Origin: Anaerolineae bacterium
Lineage (GTDB): Bacteria > Chloroflexota > Anaerolineae > UBA1429
Direction of reading: 5' to 3'
NCBI GenBank assembly: GCA_040767425.1
Contig: JAXGON010000005.1
Location: 26,969 to 90,968 of the forward strand
Length of the DNA stretch: 64,000 nt
Shown: piece after piece, positions 1 to 22,204 of the stretch
How the letters are laid out: every line of letters begins with the position of its first letter
How positions within the stretch are numbered: position 1 is the first letter of the stretch
Made by a program: the position numbers and the translations under genes
Notes under the pieces: generated by a model
Told to the model about the DNA's origin: nothing
The model's database searches: none
Seen by the model: the letters and a program-made list of their open reading frames with translations, nothing else

Positions 1-1224
1 GACACCACGTTTCGTGACGGCCAGCAGGCCCGCCAGCCGTATACCGTGGAGCAGATCGTCCAGCTCTATACCTTTATGCATCACTTGGGCGGCCCCAATG
101 GCATGATTCGCCAGAGCGAGTTCTTTTTGTACACCGAAAAGGATCGCGCAGCGGTCGAGGCCTGTCAGGCCCTGGGGTTCCGCTTTCCCGAGATCACGGC
201 CTGGATCCGCGCCCGCAAAGAGGATTTCAAGCTGGTCAAGGGCATGGGCATCGAAGAGACGGGCATTCTGGCCTCTTGTTCCGATTATCACATCTTTCGC
301 AAGCTGCGCATGACCCGCCGCCAGGCCATGGACCAGTTCCTGGGCGTGGTCAAGGAGGCCCTGTCCGAGGGCGTGCGGCCGCGGGTGCACCTGGAGGACA
401 TCACCCGAGCCGATTTCTACGGCTTTGTGGTTCCGTTGGCTCTAGAGTTGCGCCGCCTCTCACAGGAAAGCGGCATCCCCATCAAGCTGCGCGCCTGCGA
501 TACCCTCGGCTTTGGCGTCAGCTATCCTGGCGTGGCGCTGCCGCGCTCGGTGTGCGGCATCGCCTACGGCCTGTGGCACCATGCCCGCTTCCCGGCCGAG
601 CTGCTCGAGTGGCACGGGCACAATGACTTTCACCATGCGGTGACCAACGCCTCGACGGCCTGGCTCTATGGCATCGCGGCGGTCAACGCGACCTTGCTGG
701 GCATCGGCGAGCGCACCGGCAATACGCCCATGGAGGCGATGGTGTTCGAGTACGCCGCCCTGCGCGGCACCACCAACGGCATGGATACAACGGTCATCAC
801 CGAGATCGCTGACTATTACGAAAAAGAGCTGGGATACGAGATCCCGCCGATGACGCCGCTGGTGGGGCGCGACTTTGCCACCACCCGGGCGGGCATCCAC
901 GCCGATGGTCTGCTCAAGGACGAAGAGATCTATAACATCTTTGATACCCAAAAGCTGTTGAGGCGAAGTCCGCGGGTGCTCATCAATCAGACCTCTGGGG
1001 CTGCCGGGCTGTTACACTGGATCCGCTCGCACTTTCGGGTGCCGGCCGATTTCAGCCTCGACAAGCGCGATGCCCGGCTTGAGCAACTGGTGGCTTATGT
1101 GCAGCGCAGCTATGACGAGGGCCGGGTGACCGCCTTTGGCGACGACGAGCTCGAGAGCGCCATGGCCAACCTGACCCCCGATCTCTATGCGCAGCTCAAA
1201 GCGCTGCGAGACGGGACCAGCTAG
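1..1224 (+). CDS. DRE-TIM metallolyase (isopropylmalate/homocitrate synthase superfamily), most like Re-citrate synthase; 5' truncated by window edge
   Basis: Frame 1 reads DTTFRDGQQAR from base 1. It also contains EWHGHNDF (HxH metal site) and GIGERTGN. Confidence 0.85.
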   Translation, partial: DTTFRDGQQARQPYTVEQIVQLYTFMHHLGGPNGMIRQSEFFLYTEKDRAAVEACQALGFRFPEITAWIRARKEDFKLVKGMGIEETGILASCSDYHIFRKLRMTRRQAMDQFLGVVKEALSEGVRPRVHLEDITRADFYGFVVPLALELRRLSQESGIPIKLRACDTLGFGVSYPGVALPRSVCGIAYGLWHHARFPAELLEWHGHNDFHHAVTNASTAWLYGIAAVNATLLGIGERTGNTPMEAMVFEYAALRGTTNGMDTTVITEIADYYEKELGYEIPPMTPLVGRDFATTRAGIHADGLLKDEEIYNIFDTQKLLRRSPRVLINQTSGAAGLLHWIRSHFRVPADFSLDKRDARLEQLVAYVQRSYDEGRVTAFGDDELESAMANLTPDLYAQLKALRDGTS

Positions 1225-1257
1225 GCACGCGGCCATGCTGCGCTCGCCCTGAATACG

Positions 1258-1286
1258 AGAGAGGGCCTTGAGGGGCCCTCTCTTTT
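1258..1286 (+). terminator. Intrinsic terminator
   Basis: AGAGAGGGCC/GGCCCTCTCT stem followed by T-run, just after the stop at 1224. Confidence 0.7.
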
Positions 1287-1341
1287 GTGTTACCCTGCGC
1301 GCGTGATGGAGCGTCCAAGCCCAGAGCTGCGGGAGGTGGGG

Positions 1342-3243
1342 ATGACCAAAGGTGCCTATGGATTCTGGCGCAGCCAGCTGACGCCGACCATGATGGCGGA
1401 GGAGCGACGACTCTCCGAGGTGGCGTGGAGCCTAGCCGGGGATCGCTTGATCTGGGTCGAGGGACGCTCGTCAAAGAACGTCCTGGTCGCCGCCGCCGAC
1501 GGCGACGCTCCCCGCGATCTCACCGTCGAGGGCTCGGTTCGTGGCGGCGTGGGCTATGGGGGGGGCGAGATGGCCGCCGTGGAAGACGGCGTCGTCTACT
1601 GCTCTGGGGGGCGGCTCTATCGGCTGGCCTATGATCACGGTGAGCCGCGTCCGCTGACGCCTGCGTATGGCTCGGTGGCGTCGCCGGCGCCTTCGCCCGA
1701 CGGGCGCTGCGTTGCCTATGTGCACTCTGATGGGACCGAAGACGTGCTGGCGGTGGTCGATGCCGACGGCAGGCGGTGGCCCCAGAAACTGGCCTCAGGC
1801 GCCGATTTCTATACCGGCCCTACCTGGCACCCCGACGGTCGCCACCTGGCGTGGGTCGAGTGGGACCACCCCAACATGCCCTGGGATGCGACTCGGCTGG
1901 TCTTGGCGACGCTTTCGGGCGACGACCCAGCTGACACAGCAGGAACAGCTGGCGATGATACCTTCCCCCGTCTGGAGCGTACAGCCACCATCGCTGGTGA
2001 CGACGACACCGCCGCCACCGAGCCCTCGTTCTCGCCCGACGGCCGCTGGCTGGCCTATATCTGCGATGCCGACGGCTGGGACGATCTCTACCTCTATGAC
2101 CTTCAACGTGGCCAAGCGCGTCGGCTGACCTTGGGCGGGGCCGACTATGGCCAGCCAGCCTGGGCGCAAGGGATCCGCAGCTATGCCTGGGCCGCCGATA
2201 GCAGCGCCCTCTATGCTGTGCGGCGTGGTGAGGCGCGCGATGCCCTATGGCGCGTGTCCCTCGAAGGAGGTGAGCCCGAGCCGATTCGGGCGCTGGCTGA
2301 CTATGGCTCCATCCAGCAGCCCACGGTGAGCGCCGACGGACGCCTGGCCTGCATCGCCTCCAGCCATGGCATCCCGCCGCGCTTGCTGGTGTGGAATCCC
2401 CACGATGACACGGTGCAGGTGCGCGCGCGGGCCTCAGCTGAGCGCCTAGATCCCGCCAGCCTGGTTGAGCCCAGCCTGCTGACGTGGCGCGGCGAGGACG
2501 GCGAGGAGGTCTATGGCCTGCTCTACCAGCCCATGGGCGGGCCGCCGGGGCAACGGCCTCCGCTGATGGTCTCGGTGCACGGTGGGCCGACGGGCCGCGC
2601 CAAACGCGGGTGGGACCCCGCCGCCCAGTTCCTGGCGACGCGCGGGTGGGCCGTATTGGCGCTGGACTATCGCGGCAGCAGCGGATACGGGCGTGCCTAC
2701 CGCAACCGCCTACGCGGCAACTGGGGCCTGCTGGATGTAGCCGACGTCGTGAGCGGGGCGCGGCACTGCGCTCAGCGCGGCTTGGTCGACGGCGATCGCA
2801 TGGCCATCATGGGGGGCAGTGCTGGCGGCTACACGGTGCTGGAGACGCTGGCCCAGCATCCCGGCGTCTTTGCGGCCGGCGTGTGCATGTACGGCGTCAC
2901 CGATCTCTTTGCGCTGGCCGAGGAGACCCACAAGTTCGAGGCCCACTATACCGACCGGCTGGTGGGTCCCCTGCCCGAGGCCGCAGCCGCCTACCGTGAG
3001 CGCAGTCCGGCCCGCCATGCCGAACGCATCCGCGACGCGGTGGCGATCTTTCAGGGCGAAGAGGACAAGGTCGTGCCGCTCTCGCAGGCCGAGGCGCTGG
3101 TGGCAGCCTTGCGTGAGCGAGGGGTCCCGCACACTTATCGTACCTTTGCCGGCGAGGGCCATGGCTGGCGTCGCCGCGAAACCATCGTCGCTTTCTGGGA
3201 AGAGACCCTCACGTTCCTGAGGAGGCATCTGCTCTATGCCTGA
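1342..3243 (+). CDS. S9 family prolyl oligopeptidase / acylaminoacyl peptidase
   Basis: PD40/TolB-like SPDG repeats, VHGGP, DYRGSSGYG, nucleophile GGSAGG, D-x-x-V and GEGHG. GGAGG precedes ATG 1342. Confidence 0.93.
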   Translation: MTKGAYGFWRSQLTPTMMAEERRLSEVAWSLAGDRLIWVEGRSSKNVLVAAADGDAPRDLTVEGSVRGGVGYGGGEMAAVEDGVVYCSGGRLYRLAYDHGEPRPLTPAYGSVASPAPSPDGRCVAYVHSDGTEDVLAVVDADGRRWPQKLASGADFYTGPTWHPDGRHLAWVEWDHPNMPWDATRLVLATLSGDDPADTAGTAGDDTFPRLERTATIAGDDDTAATEPSFSPDGRWLAYICDADGWDDLYLYDLQRGQARRLTLGGADYGQPAWAQGIRSYAWAADSSALYAVRRGEARDALWRVSLEGGEPEPIRALADYGSIQQPTVSADGRLACIASSHGIPPRLLVWNPHDDTVQVRARASAERLDPASLVEPSLLTWRGEDGEEVYGLLYQPMGGPPGQRPPLMVSVHGGPTGRAKRGWDPAAQFLATRGWAVLALDYRGSSGYGRAYRNRLRGNWGLLDVADVVSGARHCAQRGLVDGDRMAIMGGSAGGYTVLETLAQHPGVFAAGVCMYGVTDLFALAEETHKFEAHYTDRLVGPLPEAAAAYRERSPARHAERIRDAVAIFQGEEDKVVPLSQAEALVAALRERGVPHTYRTFAGEGHGWRRRETIVAFWEETLTFLRRHLLYA

Positions 3244-18072: not shown

Positions 18073-19188
18073 ATGGAGTACCGCGCCCTCGGCCGCACCG
18101 GCGCGCGCGTGAGCGCCATCTCGCTGGGCACCGAATACATCCAAGACGCCGACCAGGCCCGCATGGACGCCGTGATCGGGGCGGCGCTGGAGCATGGCGC
18201 CAACTATCTGGACGCCTGGTACGCCGAGCCAACCTTTCGCGATCGCCTGGGGAACGCCCTGCGCGGCCGCCGCGACGAGGTGCTCATCGCTGGACATCTG
18301 GGCTCGACCCACCAGAGCGGCCAGTACGTCCGCACTCGCGACGCCGACTTGGCTGAGCGGTTCGTGCTGGATATGCTGGAGCGGCTGGGCACTGATCACC
18401 TGGACGTGCTGTTCCTGCACAACTGCGACGAGCAGGACGACCTAGACGCCATCTTGGCGCCGGGCGGCCTGGCCGATCGTGCTTTGGCGCTACAACGCCA
18501 AGGGCGGGCGCGCTGGATCGGGTTCAGCGGGCACACGCCGGCCAGCTCCCAACGGGCGGTGGAGACAGGCATCGTTGACGTGCTCATGTTCCCCATCAAC
18601 CTGACCGGCCACGCCGCGCCGGGCAAGGCCGAGCTGCTGGCCGCCTGCGTCCGCGCCAACGTGGGCCTGGTGGCCATGAAGCCGTTTGCGGGCGGCATGC
18701 TGCTCCAGCCCGAGCCCACCATCCAGGCCAACCGGTACGTCTCGGCGCGTGAGGGCGAGCTGACGCGCCGCGAACCGGTGTCGCCCGCCACCTGCCTGGC
18801 CTATGCGCTAGCCCACGCCGAGGTCAGCACGGTGGTGCCGGGCTGCGCCACGGTCGAGCAGGTCCACGAGGATCTGGGCTACTGGGGGGCGCCGGCCGCG
18901 TCGCGCGACTTTAGCGGTGTGCTGGAGAGCTTTGCGACGTACGCGGAGGGGCACTGCGTCTACTGCAACCACTGCCTTCCCTGCCCTGCCGAGATCGACA
19001 TTGCCGCCATGAACCGCCTGCTCGATCGGGCGCGCATCCAGGGCGTCGACGACGCGTTGCGCCAGGCCTATGCCGCCATGCCCGCCAACGCCGACGATTG
19101 CCTGGCCTGCGCCGATTGCGAGACGCGCTGCCCCTTTGGCGTGGCGGTGGTGGATCGCATGGACGCCGCCCGCGAGCTGTTCGGATAG
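18073..19188 (+). CDS. Aldo/keto reductase with C-terminal 4Fe-4S dicluster domain
   Basis: MEYRALGRTG, GTDHLDVLFLH, GFSGH, AMKPFAGG, CVYCNHCLPC and CLACADCETRCP. Confidence 0.93.
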   Translation: MEYRALGRTGARVSAISLGTEYIQDADQARMDAVIGAALEHGANYLDAWYAEPTFRDRLGNALRGRRDEVLIAGHLGSTHQSGQYVRTRDADLAERFVLDMLERLGTDHLDVLFLHNCDEQDDLDAILAPGGLADRALALQRQGRARWIGFSGHTPASSQRAVETGIVDVLMFPINLTGHAAPGKAELLAACVRANVGLVAMKPFAGGMLLQPEPTIQANRYVSAREGELTRREPVSPATCLAYALAHAEVSTVVPGCATVEQVHEDLGYWGAPAASRDFSGVLESFATYAEGHCVYCNHCLPCPAEIDIAAMNRLLDRARIQGVDDALRQAYAAMPANADDCLACADCETRCPFGVAVVDRMDAARELFG

Positions 19189-19202
19189 CAGAGGAGGTAC
19201 CC

Positions 19203-20015
19203 ATGTCGCCCATCGCCTGTTCCAGCGGCCTCTTTCACCAACTCCCGCTCGAGCCCGCCCTCAAGGGCGTCGCCAAGCTCGGCTTCCGACGGGTGGACCT
19301 GCTGGCGGTAGAGGGCTGGAACCACATCAATCCCAGCGAGGCTGCCGATGACGTGGACGCCGTGGATGCCCGCCTGCAGCAGGCCCTGGAGGCAGCCAGC
19401 GTAGAGCTGGACGCGTTCAACATGGGCTTTTCCATGGCGCTGCATGAACGACGACCGGCGGCCTGCGAGCAGCGCCAGGCCGAGGCCGCCGCCATGGCCG
19501 AGCTGATGACCCGCTACAACCTCACCACCGCCTCATTGGTGCCCGGCCGCCCGGACCCCACCCTGCCCGCCGAGGCTCAGATCGAGCGGGCCGTGGCGTC
19601 CCTGCGCGAGATCATGGCGGTGACGCGTCCCTATGGGCTGACCATCGCGCTCGAGTGCCATGTGGATTCGATCATGGAAGACCCCGTCGTGGCGGCCCGC
19701 ATCCTGGACGAGGTGCCCGGTCTGACGGTAGCCTATGACCCCTCGCACCTGATCATGCAGGGGATTGCGCTCGAGGATACCGGCCCGCTACTGGATCGGG
19801 TCGGCCGCGTGCATCTGCGCGATGCCGCGCGTGGTGAGATGCAGGTGCGTTACGGACGGGGCGAGCTCGATCTGGACCGGTTGCTGGCCCTACTGGCGAA
19901 GCACGGGTACCGGGGCGGGTATTCGATCGAGGTGCTGGACCCCTGGGGCAGCCGCGCGGCTCGCCGAGACGTCCAAGCGCTGCAGCGGGCCTTGTCCGAG
20001 CGCGGCGTGGCCTAG
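19203..20015 (+). CDS. Sugar phosphate isomerase/epimerase (xylose-isomerase-like TIM barrel)
   Basis: LECH, YDPSH, VHLRD, GYRGGYSIE metal-binding pattern. Confidence 0.88.
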   Translation: MSPIACSSGLFHQLPLEPALKGVAKLGFRRVDLLAVEGWNHINPSEAADDVDAVDARLQQALEAASVELDAFNMGFSMALHERRPAACEQRQAEAAAMAELMTRYNLTTASLVPGRPDPTLPAEAQIERAVASLREIMAVTRPYGLTIALECHVDSIMEDPVVAARILDEVPGLTVAYDPSHLIMQGIALEDTGPLLDRVGRVHLRDAARGEMQVRYGRGELDLDRLLALLAKHGYRGGYSIEVLDPWGSRAARRDVQALQRALSERGVA

Positions 20016-20030
20016 CCCCCCAAACGCCAA

Positions 20031-20065
20031 GTGAGGCCGCCACGGTTTCCCGGTGACGGCCTCAC
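20031..20065 (-). terminator. 3' hairpin (GAAA loop) of the minus-strand ncRNA; probably bidirectional
   Basis: Minus strand GTGAGGCCGTCACCGG-GAAA-CCGTGGCGGCCTCAC followed by TTGGCGTTT. A G-U pair works only on the minus strand. Confidence 0.7.
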
Positions 20066-20069
20066 AAAG

Positions 20070-20370
20070 ATGCAGGACTCAAGTGACCTTTCTGCTCCCC
20101 TGATGATCTGCCCCTCAGCGGTTCGGACGTTTCACGATCCGTTCCACCGAAACACGTTTCTTCTGGCTTACGCGGCCGAGCGAGCCGGCTTGGCGCTCAC
20201 TGCTCTCGGACCTTGGCTCAGCGTGTGTTTCCACACGTCACACGAGCTCTCGACCCTTACCTCAGCTCACGGTTCCTGTCTAGGCTTGCGCCCTCCAGCT
20301 CCCCGTCTGCCAGACTCCCCGCTTTTTGGGGTCAGACCCGGAGATCAGTCCAATCTCTCGAGCCCTGCAC
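20070..20370 (-). ncRNA. Candidate ~300-nt structured stand-alone ncRNA of unknown family
   Basis: Own promoter and 3' hairpin, 14-bp closing stem, GCAA/GAAA tetraloop hairpins, internal 21-nt repeat, no credible ORF, no downstream gene on the same strand. Confidence 0.78.
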
Positions 20371-20374
20371 CAGT

Positions 20375-20403
20375 ATAATAGCACACCGACGAGAGGCTGT
20401 CAA
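20375..20403 (-). promoter_or_regulatory. Near-consensus sigma70 promoter driving the ncRNA
   Basis: Minus strand TTGACA (20403-20398), 17 bp spacer ending TGC, TATTAT (20380-20375): an extended -10. Confidence 0.75.
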
Positions 20404-20524
20404 GGGTTTTCCAGCCCGAATTCTGCGGGCTTTTCGGCAACAACGCATCTTTCGTGGGCCATGACCATCTGCTACAATAGGAGTGTCCGACCTGGTCGGG
20501 TCATGTCGCAAGGATGGCGCTCAG

Positions 20525-22204
20525 ATGCCCCAGACGACCGCCCTGTCGACCAATACCTCCACGGCCCGTGCGAGCGACGGGTCGCCCGCCCGCACGCCCG
20601 GCCAGATCACCCTGCAAGAGATCGTCCGCCCCCTGGCCATCGCCGTCATGCTCACCTGCATCGCCATCGCCCTCTCGGCGCTGCTGGCCCGCATCGTACC
20701 AGAGTGGCCCGGCCGCTTTTTCGTCGTGCTGGTATTCTTTGTGAGCCTAGAGAGCGTCCAGGCCTATCGCATCCTGGCTCATCGAGACGTGGGCCAGCGC
20801 GATCGTCTTCGCTTTCGCGTGGTCGAGTGGGTCACGCTCCTGCTGATCATCCGCTTTGGCGTCTATCTGCACCTGGGCTGGGATCGCCTGCTGGAAGATG
20901 CCGCCCTCTGGACCGCCAACGCCCTCGCCATCATCGACTATGGCTTTGTGATGATGGCCATGCTGACGCTGGTGTTCTGGTACATGGCCCTAACGCTGGC
21001 ACAGGCCATTTGGGAGCTCGAGGTCACGCCGCTGGAGCACATCCCCGACGTCACCGATCCGCGCTACTATTTGCGGGCCACCATGCCGCGGCACGGTCAG
21101 ACGGATCGGGCCGGTCGGATCTCTATGATCATGGCCATCTATTTGCTCGGGGGCACGTCGCTCTTGATGTTCACCGGCATGGCCCAGTTCGATCTGCAGA
21201 TGCTCGAGGCGCTGCCGAACGCGCGCCTGGGGTCGTTGGGCGCCAACGCGCTGGTCTATTTCGCCGTGGGGATGCTCCTCTTTAGCCAGGCTCGCTACAC
21301 GGTCCTGCGGGCCCAGTGGGAGTTGCAGGGCATCGCGGTGCGAGGCCGGATCGGCGAGCGCTGGATGGCCTTGGCGATCCTGTTCCTGCTGATGGTCGCG
21401 TTGGGGGCGGTGCTCTTGCCGTCAGGGTACAGCGTGCCGATCTTTGAGGCCGTTAGCGTGGCGGCACGCTGGCTGGCTTGGATCGTGACCCAACTTGTGT
21501 TGCTGATCATCTTTGCCGTCGCCGTGGCCATGCGCTGGTTGCTGGATCTCTTCACGGGCCAGCCTGGTCCGCAACCGAGATACCCCACGCTCCAGCCCAC
21601 GCCGGCCCCTCCCGAGGGCGCCACCGGGCGTGGCACCACCCTCGCCTGGCAGATACTCCGATCGTTGCTGTTCTGGTGGGCGTTGCTGGGCATCGCCGCC
21701 TATTCGGTGCTGCACTTTGTGGGAGATCGGCTGCATCTGCTGGCCTGGTTGCGTCGCACCAAGGGGTGGGCCTGGCTGAGCCAGCTGGCCGACAGGATCC
21801 GCCGGGCCTGGCGGCGGGCATGGGCACTGGCCGGAGGAGCCGTGCGCCAATGGCGCGAGGCGGCTACCCGGCGGCAGCGGGCCCAACTACCCGCTGTGCG
21901 CACCCGCCGGCACATCTCGCTCAAGCGGCTCTCGCCACGCGACCGCGCCCGCTACTATTACCTGGCAGCCCTACGGCAGACCAGCCGCGCGGGGCTGGCC
22001 CGTCCGGCGCAGCTCACGCCCAACGAGTACCGAGAGGTGCTGGTCGAGCAGATACCCGAGGCCACGTCCGAGGCCGAGGAGCTGACGGGAATCTTTCACG
22101 AGGCGCGTTACTCTAGCCATCCCATCGACGACGAGACGGCGTCCCGGGCGCGGTGGCTCCGCCGGCAGCTGGTACATTGGACCCAGGAAAAGCGCCGGCG
22201 CTAG
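20525..22204 (+). CDS. DUF4129-domain multi-pass membrane protein
   Basis: About 11 TM segments. C-terminal YYY..L...G..R...TPNEY...LT..F.EARYS. Confidence 0.85.
   Translation: MPQTTALSTNTSTARASDGSPARTPGQITLQEIVRPLAIAVMLTCIAIALSALLARIVPEWPGRFFVVLVFFVSLESVQAYRILAHRDVGQRDRLRFRVVEWVTLLLIIRFGVYLHLGWDRLLEDAALWTANALAIIDYGFVMMAMLTLVFWYMALTLAQAIWELEVTPLEHIPDVTDPRYYLRATMPRHGQTDRAGRISMIMAIYLLGGTSLLMFTGMAQFDLQMLEALPNARLGSLGANALVYFAVGMLLFSQARYTVLRAQWELQGIAVRGRIGERWMALAILFLLMVALGAVLLPSGYSVPIFEAVSVAARWLAWIVTQLVLLIIFAVAVAMRWLLDLFTGQPGPQPRYPTLQPTPAPPEGATGRGTTLAWQILRSLLFWWALLGIAAYSVLHFVGDRLHLLAWLRRTKGWAWLSQLADRIRRAWRRAWALAGGAVRQWREAATRRQRAQLPAVRTRRHISLKRLSPRDRARYYYLAALRQTSRAGLARPAQLTPNEYREVLVEQIPEATSEAEELTGIFHEARYSSHPIDDETASRARWLRRQLVHWTQEKRRR

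Follow-up and report, generated by a model that had tools for sequence, protein, structure and literature searches.

The 64,000-nucleotide (nt) stretch of Anaerolineae DNA analysed here (contig JAXGON010000005.1 of assembly GCA_040767425.1; hereafter the window) contains a gap of 510 nt between two plus-strand genes, in which an earlier reading of the letters had placed the gene of a stand-alone, multi-branched functional RNA, possibly of a new class (the original prediction). On one side of the gap, a gene for a xylose-isomerase-like TIM-barrel protein ends at 20015 (stop codon 20013-20015) and converges on the candidate RNA; on the other side, a gene for a DUF4129 membrane protein, starting at 20483 or about 20527, diverges from its promoter. 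Homologues, covariation and isolated contigs in RNA libraries support the original proposal, and the locus is most probably the gene of a new, uncatalogued class of stand-alone, abundant, ornate, trans-acting structured RNA of Anaerolineae.

The minus strand of the gap carries a near-consensus sigma-70 promoter. TTGACA, a 17-nt spacer and TATTAT with a TG extension, giving a start at about 20370, had been predicted; a consensus scan located all of these elements at their expected places with a score of 11/12 plus the TG extension (20383-20382), which lies in the TGTGC at the end of the spacer. The promoter scan revealed no other promoter-like site in 19500-21000, where 0.2 would be expected from 50 shuffles. 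The sequence GUGCAGGGCUCGAG (20370-20357) opens 4 nt past the -10 hexamer and provides the 5' strand of the closing stem. This stem is present as described, with GTGCAGGGCTCGAG (20370-20357) pairing with CTTGAGTCCTGCAT (20083-20070) over 14 base pairs (bp), including 3 G-U pairs. The minus strand as a whole has a predicted folding energy of -167.3 kcal/mol (z -6.6), equalled by none of 100 shuffled sequences, compared to -128.4 kcal/mol (z -2.5) for the plus strand.

Beyond the 3' strand of the closing stem, a short U-containing linker leads to a hairpin with a GAAA loop and a 13-bp stem (20065-20031), in which the same-genus copies of the RNA covary at one pair (A-U to G-C). This hairpin had also been predicted and is indeed present; the mature RNA, of about 301 nt, instead seems to reach only to the foot of the closing stem. 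The consensus terminator scan did not call the hairpin, and the T run behind it is poor. It starts 16 nt past the stop codon of the convergent xylose-isomerase-like gene, and might terminate both convergent transcripts, with a good U run on neither side.

Transcripts of the locus were looked for in public metatranscriptomes. In an index of public runs, 15 runs recorded as RNA contain 0.60-0.68 of the sampled words of 20030-20400; these runs come from activated sludge, wastewater, digesters and biofilms in many studies, and several hold only 61-215 million letters. For each of the runs X1, X4 and X5, one contig maps to the region 19700-20800 (Table 1), with zero depth over 19700-20069 and 20366-20800, that is, over both flanking genes, the promoter and the terminator hairpin. 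Since DNA contamination would cover these flanks, the stretch appears to be present as a discrete and comparatively abundant RNA. The contig limits are no more than about 2-22 nt away from the predicted start at 20370 and from the foot of the closing stem at 20070. The X1 contig continues for 21 letters past 20359 with a sequence resembling an Illumina adapter, which implies that many inserts ended 11 nt inside the predicted 5' end; this limit could reflect a stop of reverse transcriptase at the stable closing stem, or a real end. The transcript expected from the original prediction is thus seen as isolated contigs free of the flanking genes; its assignment to the minus strand comes from the promoter together with the G-U pairing and the energies of folding.

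The window's RNA represents one subtype within a large family that occurs in multiple copies and extends over a bacterial class. BLAST searches with the locus gave full-length copies in all five same-genus genomes (81-93% identity) and short patches in 7 more genera of the family; two genomes had additional partial copies. In the first alignment the promoter was almost invariant and the 5' and 3' ends invariant, with a diverged interior. A pattern combining the promoter and the 5' end, applied to 185,579 species genomes (one each), returned 28 loci, 27 of which belong to records titled as Chloroflexota, Anaerolineae or Anaerolineales metagenome-assembled genomes; the 28th, on an AT-rich Flavobacteriales contig and without the 3' motif, was rejected as a chance match. 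With R1, a covariance model derived from 19 copies belonging to the shorter subtypes and matching 20069-20370 in the window, we found the RNA in 37 of the 42 genomes and 20 of the 24 genera of the family, with 1-4 copies each, some of them adjacent; the window's own genome yielded only this one copy. The copies divide into about ten subtypes of 250-300 nt and two long forms of about 410-420 nt. TTGAC-N17-19-TRnnnT lies directly upstream in 48 of the 49 distinct full-length copies, a TG extension is found in 45, and a stable hairpin with a T4 run occurs at most 90 nt downstream in 27 of the 47 copies that have enough downstream sequence.

Homologues of the kind foreseen therefore exist, and in them the terminal stem, composed of helices P1 and P2, and the core helices Pa and Pb are maintained by compensatory changes. 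The R1 alignment comprises 71 matches, of which 52 are distinct. Over these 52 sequences, the helix formed by P1 (13 pairs as modelled) and P2 (4 pairs), with a purine-A mismatch between them, is 99.4% paired. Nine of these 17 pairs have changed on both sides, for instance G-C in 27 vs A-U in 21 sequences, or C-G in 25 vs U-A in 21, and the four conserved pairs of P2 show the exchanges G-U/A-U and U-G/U-A/C-G. None of 500 shuffles matches the observed values, and sliding the partner strand by 1-3 columns reduces the pairing to 39-51%. The inner end of the terminal helix is near-invariant (C-G, G-U, A-U, G-C, the purine-A mismatch and the wobble-rich P2), which suggests recognition by a protein or an enzyme.

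A second covariance model restricted to the core (R2; 16 sequences, 96 positions) matches 20195-20314 in the window and aligns 45 distinct sequences. The core common to most subtypes consists of (G/A)A-RCGG, a hairpin, CCGY, RAG, Pb and a purine-rich internal loop (GAAAGG ... GGGAAG), after which follow CAAG..AGUA, another hairpin and GAAAG. Pa is 98.3% paired over the 45 sequences and Pb 95.0%, with all four pairs of Pb changing on both sides (e.g. C-G 13, U-A 13, G-C 12). Taken together, the two helices are 96.7% paired, with both-sided change at six of their eight pairs and 28-41% pairing in the slid controls. As an independent fold, the RNAalifold prediction for nine copies of another subtype contains 81 pairs, 11 of them with compensatory changes, and displays the same architecture as the window's subtype. 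In both subtypes, which have 81-105 consensus pairs, the 5' and 3' quarters pair into a long stalk whose 3' strand bears a side hairpin, and the plan further includes a closing helix and a four-way junction.

When the five same-genus copies are folded to a consensus for the window's subtype, the result is the same, at -131.56 kcal/mol, with or without enforcing P1, P2, Pa and Pb (Table 1). Among these copies only, two pairs of P3 show compensatory change (C-G to U-A and U-A to C-G) and the pairing of P5 survives two one-sided changes; all 12 pairs of the side hairpin at 20115-20150 are retained in the five copies via one-sided changes. Six interior hairpins had originally been drawn, of which four are kept in the consensus fold and two are better accounted for by long-range pairings. 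The hairpin GGC-GCAA-GCC and the arm CGGT..CGGATCG..CGTCCG..ACCG recur, CGTGTG-GAAA-CACACG recurs with one compensatory U-A to C-G change, and the region of GTGAGC..GCTCGC does form a hairpin, in another register (GCGC/GCGU plus GCCGG/UCGGC). The local hairpin GAGATTG-GAC-TGATCTC and the outer GTCTG/CAGAC pairing did not hold up as well, being rivalled by pairings of the 5' ~45 nt with the 3' ~45 nt: as RNA, GAGAUUG..UGAUCUC and GUCUG..CAGAC overlap P2 and P5. Because P2 is conserved family-wide and P3 contains two compensatory pairs, we prefer the long-range stalk over the two local hairpins. With five close sequences behind it, the stalk is the least certain part of the fold of this subtype. 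A metagenome scan with the subtype motif returned 9 loci, namely 5 near-identical copies and 4 chance matches in coding-like DNA; as it adds no diversity to the subtype, the interior helices of the window's RNA stay weakly supported.

Table 1. Positions in the window of the elements of the candidate RNA gene and of the RNA-run sequences mapped to it
Feature	Position	Strand	Remarks
Promoter	20375..20410	-	A-tract 20410-20407; -35 TTGACA 20403-20398; 17-nt spacer; -10 TATTAT 20380-20375
RNA, ~301 nt	20070..20370	-	G at 20370 (~5 nt after the -10) to last paired base of the closing stem; inferred ends
P1, 5' strand	20357..20370	-	GUGCAGGGCUCGAG; partner 20070-20083
P2, 5' strand	20352..20355	-	GAUU; partner GGUC 20085-20088; A-A mismatch (20356/20084) parts P2 from P1
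Stalk P3-P6, 5' strand	20328..20348	-	pairs with 20092-20114; consensus fold of five same-genus copies
Core domain	20162..20314	-	closed by P8 (20309-20314 with 20162-20167)
Pa	20303-20306 with 20269-20272	-	encloses GCAA hairpin 20282-20293
Pb	20263-20266 with 20199-20202	-	bears GAAA-loop arm 20222-20237
Pc hairpin	20170-20196	-	in the core domain
Side hairpin on 3' stalk strand	20115..20150	-	UCGGUGG..CGGAU..loop..GUCCG..CCGCUGA
Stalk P3-P6, 3' strand	20092..20114	-	pairs with 20328-20348
P1, 3' strand	20070..20083	-	CUUGAGUCCUGCAU; partner 20357-20370
Terminator-like hairpin, GAAA loop, 13-bp stem	20031..20065	-	followed by UUGGCGUUUG; outside the RNA of the RNA libraries
Run X1, contigs mapped to 19700-20800	20078-20359		one contig, depth 147
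Run X4, contigs mapped to 19700-20800	20072-20354		one contig, depth 21.5
Run X5, contigs mapped to 19700-20800	20083-20348		one contig, depth 4
Run X21, raw reads mapped to 19700-20800			zero reads

Outside the family of the window's genome, R1 gave only 2 weak matches in 146 genomes of other families of the class. R2 matches 16 of the 151 genomes of the class sample, and judging the flanks by eye we accepted homologues in 9 genomes of 6 families outside the window's own (G036, G069, G079, G113, G126, G138, G143, G153 and G186). Each of the 9 has an upstream promoter-like site and a terminator, and P1 and P2 follow the same design with another sequence (5' ..YCCGAG-GAGCUG.., 3' ..AAGGUUACUUGGG..). 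The R2 matches in G061, G073, G101, G123 and G128 have no promoter, P1/P2 or terminator, look coding and are probable chance matches. In a sample of 150 other genomes of the phylum, one of the 8 R2 matches is convincing (G210, from another class), and the other seven were rejected on the same grounds as the five of the class sample. R2 misses subtypes with a diverged core, including three of the four family genomes that R1 detects in the class sample, and these range counts are lower bounds.

Tandem units were observed in four genomes of one family of the class other than the window's. In L103 (~225-1360, minus strand), a single promoter and a single terminator bracket four units with a period of about 262 nt. 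Every unit has a P1 of its own, and purine-rich spacers of 5-7 nt part the units; L101, L107 and L108 contain at least two adjacent units each. Within the window's family, paralogues often stand side by side, each with its own promoter (L023 2746-3377, L027 1343-1958, L032 4414-5921 and L076 1315-1773); the neighbouring copies in L023 and L027 have very different R1 scores and seem to belong to different subtypes. A third copy, of only about 165 nt, is present in one same-genus genome (L014, ~1519-1685, minus strand), consisting of the stalk and the 3' side hairpin without the junction core; its promoter is degenerate, and the copy may be either decaying or a mini-variant. In L020, L023, L036 and L037, the 60-150 nt directly after the terminator of the RNA (in L023 at ~2630-2740, minus strand) contain another promoter-like site and a leader-like stretch that is conserved. 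This stretch precedes an open reading frame (ORF) of 142 codons without a Pfam match and a phosphoribosyltransferase gene, and may be a separate regulatory leader.

Clustering of the flanking ORFs showed no conserved partner neighbour of the RNA, the only recurring blocks being orthologous synteny within subtypes. Within the genus, the RNA gene lies between the same two genes as in the window. In other subtypes and families its neighbours are unrelated enzymes and transporters, with equally unrelated Pfam names (xylose-isomerase-like, DUF4129, phosphoribosyltransferase, aminotransferase, TauE, AFOR and NTP transferase, among others).

These observations can be arranged into a putative pathway. 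Transcription would start at about 20370 on the minus strand, and the transcript would be trimmed or terminated at the foot of P1, at about 20070, whereby the terminator hairpin would be removed; trimming at this point would also free single units in the tandem operons. Maturation at the P1 foot is suggested by the library RNA, which is without the terminator hairpin, together with the tandem operons. It has a parallel in 4.5S/signal recognition particle (SRP) RNA and in tRNA operons, where units with paired ends are cut from longer or multi-unit precursors. The likeness, seen in the four L103 units under one promoter and terminator and in the library RNA, concerns maturation only, the genome's SRP RNA lying elsewhere. 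The product is predicted to be a rod, with a long 5'/3' stalk bearing a four-way junction whose purine-rich joining strands are conserved. The sequence-invariant inner end of the stalk may be a handle for a protein or for processing, the junction could be the functional centre, and the variable arms could tell the paralogues apart. By analogy with known systems, we tentatively propose, as the likeliest mode of action, that the fold of the RNA lets it act in trans as the scaffold or RNA component of a ribonucleoprotein (RNP), and not as an antisense regulator.

Several points weigh against the reading of the locus as a whole. No partner protein, ligand, target or conserved neighbour points to the function, and the proposed RNP would rest on analogy. 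The strand and the exact ends of the RNA are deduced, as contigs carry no strand and do not mark where an RNA ends. For the window's subtype, the interior is drawn from 5 sequences of 81-93% identity, and some of its helices have rival pairings. Model E-values are rough, and the matches in the class and the phylum were accepted by eye. The R1 and R2 alignments (A6, A9) were fitted to their models and so are biased toward the helices tested, and kinship alone may let sequences outscore shuffles in the absence of structure. Even with fitted alignments, the large contrast with the controls and the many types of pair argue for a real structure. Finally, it is possible that the RNA already stands as an unnamed candidate motif in the supplements of RNA-discovery papers. 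Full-text literature searches, with supplementary candidate lists outside their scope, found no such RNA described for Anaerolineae or Chloroflexota, and no mention of one was found in PMC10861870, PMC11109978, PMC5737381 or a 2026 bioRxiv preprint.

An action without protein is an unlikely but serious alternative to the RNP. The junction would then be a catalytic or ligand-binding centre, serving for example the release of units, or the RNA would form homo- or hetero-oligomers of RNA only, as ROOL, GOLLD and OLE do. Such multimers are reported for these three RNAs (10.1101/2024.12.08.627333). The absence of any partner or conserved neighbour among those sought, the four-unit operons with their 5-7 nt spacers and the purine-rich junction strands conserved across families make this mode of action compatible with the data. 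Like OLE, ROOL and GOLLD, the window's RNA is a large, ornate orphan RNA supported by covariation. Unlike them, it is at most half their size, occurs in a different phylum, was not found on viral contigs, and belongs to a family with its own promoter for each copy, or with tandem operons.

A regulatory role is less probable still. The RNA would be a trans-acting base-pairing regulator or a CsrB-like sponge, with the structure mainly providing stability and a seed or GGA loops doing the work. A stand-alone gene with its own promoter and terminator would suit this role, as would the several diverged paralogues per genome, which many small RNA families share, and conserved unpaired stretches such as AUAAAAACGA, which follows a GGAG hairpin in most subtypes. 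However, this motif is not kept in the same form in the window's subtype or outside the family, and the RNA, 250-420 nt long, conserves about 80-100 pairs and a junction of several helices, which goes far beyond the structure of such regulators. The window's genome (G000, 90.7% complete) moreover yields 0 matches to Hfq (PF17209) and to CsrA (PF02599). We accordingly rejected an Hfq-dependent base-pairing RNA, given also a length of about 300 nt with structure over nearly all of it, and a sponge of the CsrB/RsmZ type, whose CsrA partner was not found.

It is improbable to a much greater degree that the RNA belongs, in diverged form, to a known family (6S, SRP, RNase P, tmRNA, Y RNA, raiA, or OLE/ROOL/GOLLD/HEARO). 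Its size, abundance, strong promoter and paired 5' and 3' ends do recall 6S, 4.5S/SRP, Y and raiA RNAs. However, scanning the whole 64-kb window with Rfam 15 (4227 models) at gathering thresholds gave 0 matches, as the original prediction of a novel RNA implied. Relaxing the E-value to 10 at the locus produced stray sub-threshold rows only, and 11 diverse family members together with 10 distant ones gave nothing meaningful at E up to 1. The OLE, ROOL, GOLLD and HEARO models have no match at the locus or at 21 related loci. RNase P, SRP, tmRNA and 6S had been set aside in the original prediction. RNase P RNA (RF00010, 286 bits), a small SRP RNA (79.4 bits; neither RF00169 nor RF01854 has a match in the window) and 6S RNA (RF00013, 62 bits, over its cut-off) were all located on other contigs than the window's. 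For tmRNA (RF00023), neither the model nor ARAGORN gives a match at the locus, and ARAGORN detects no tRNA, tmRNA or tRNA-like module in 19000-21500. Canonical tmRNA was found in four of the five same-genus genomes carrying the RNA, as in most sampled relatives that carry it. The window's genome itself (35 contigs) has no tmRNA over the Rfam cut-off, and 0 tmRNAs and 43 tRNAs by ARAGORN; given the canonical tmRNA of the relatives and a completeness of 90.7%, this is most likely an assembly gap.

The nearest likenesses among known RNAs differ from the window's RNA in more than their models. Ms1 RNA of actinobacteria is also about 300 nt long. 6S and Ms1 RNAs likewise are abundant, have strong promoters and pair their 5' and 3' ends into a long irregular rod; in the window's RNA, unlike 6S, the consensus fold gives a rod with a four-way junction and no large central bubble. 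In Y RNAs, the paired termini form a conserved helix with a non-canonical interruption and the remainder varies between paralogues, both of which hold for the window's RNA; the ends thus recall a Ro-binding helix. Unlike Y RNAs, however, it is much longer, no tRNA-like module was found in it, and TROVE (PF05731), the domain of Ro60, has 0 matches in its genome, the Deinococcus control being positive. Descriptions of raiA RNA (ModT, RF03072) usually speak of a single conserved gene, in Bacillota and Actinomycetota. raiA resembles the window's RNA in being stand-alone, about 200-300 nt long and rich in helices, with numerous conserved junction nucleotides, and in being lineage-wide and stably inherited with an unsettled biochemical role. 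The two differ in that the raiA model (gathering threshold 101.3 bits) fails at the locus, the best scores in the genome (18.8 and 9.1 bits) lying elsewhere and raiA rows being absent from the E-value scans of 22 loci, and in that the RNA described here occurs in Anaerolineae as 1-4 diverged copies and in tandem operons. raiA is reported to be very abundant in cells (PMC12968392, PMC10861870), and Anaerolineae to have few if any raiA genes (PMC10861870), which would leave room for a replacement. The window's RNA does fit the descriptive category of a large, highly structured orphan non-coding RNA, being about 301 nt long, with covarying P1, P2, Pa and Pb and its own promoter.

An origin in a repeat or mobile element, with the RNA serving a transposon nuclease or recombinase as guide or scaffold, or being a retron-like or phage RNA, has slighter odds. 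Multiple and sometimes tandem copies with highly conserved ends and a variable interior are reminiscent of such elements, but no nuclease, reverse transcriptase or recombinase gene recurs alongside, the position within the genus is syntenic, and the models of HEARO and similar RNAs do not match. The promoter and 5'-end pattern has 0 matches in a viral contig collection, whereas it found 27 true loci in genomes.

We regard a cis-regulatory leader, riboswitch or antisense element of a neighbouring gene as hardly credible. The RNA does lie in a gap of 510 nt, with the DUF4129 gene starting some 110-160 nt away on the other strand. But its promoter and hairpin point away from that gene, the downstream gene converges (as had been noted when a riboswitch leader was discounted at the outset), the plus strand folds much worse, the neighbours vary between subtypes and families, and the RNA-library contigs stop at the borders of the RNA and enter neither gene. 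Weakest of all, to the point of being negligible, is a protein-coding region or a chance structure: a plus-strand ORF of 115 codons (20031-20378) overlaps the RNA, but a Pfam search at E up to 1 gave no match for it or for the other two overlapping ORFs, indels of 1 and 2 nt separate the same-genus copies, and the covariation and the expression pattern favour RNA.

Large, intricately folded bacterial RNAs are rare, and to our knowledge almost all of those with a solved function have turned out to be a ribozyme, the core of an RNP or a new type of regulator. The structured RNA encoded in the window appears to be kept across a class of environmentally dominant, hardly cultivable filamentous bacteria (Anaerolineae, by record titles), and as a discrete RNA it is assembled even from small sludge and biofilm metatranscriptomes. 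Its defined sequence, supported secondary structure and many natural variants make it a testable object for cryo-electron microscopy, pull-downs and structure probing. Should its action prove to be protein-free, it would be a natural ribozyme or a self-assembling RNA of a new kind, belonging to an entire bacterial class. It may also serve as a marker RNA for the activity of Anaerolineae in metatranscriptomes.

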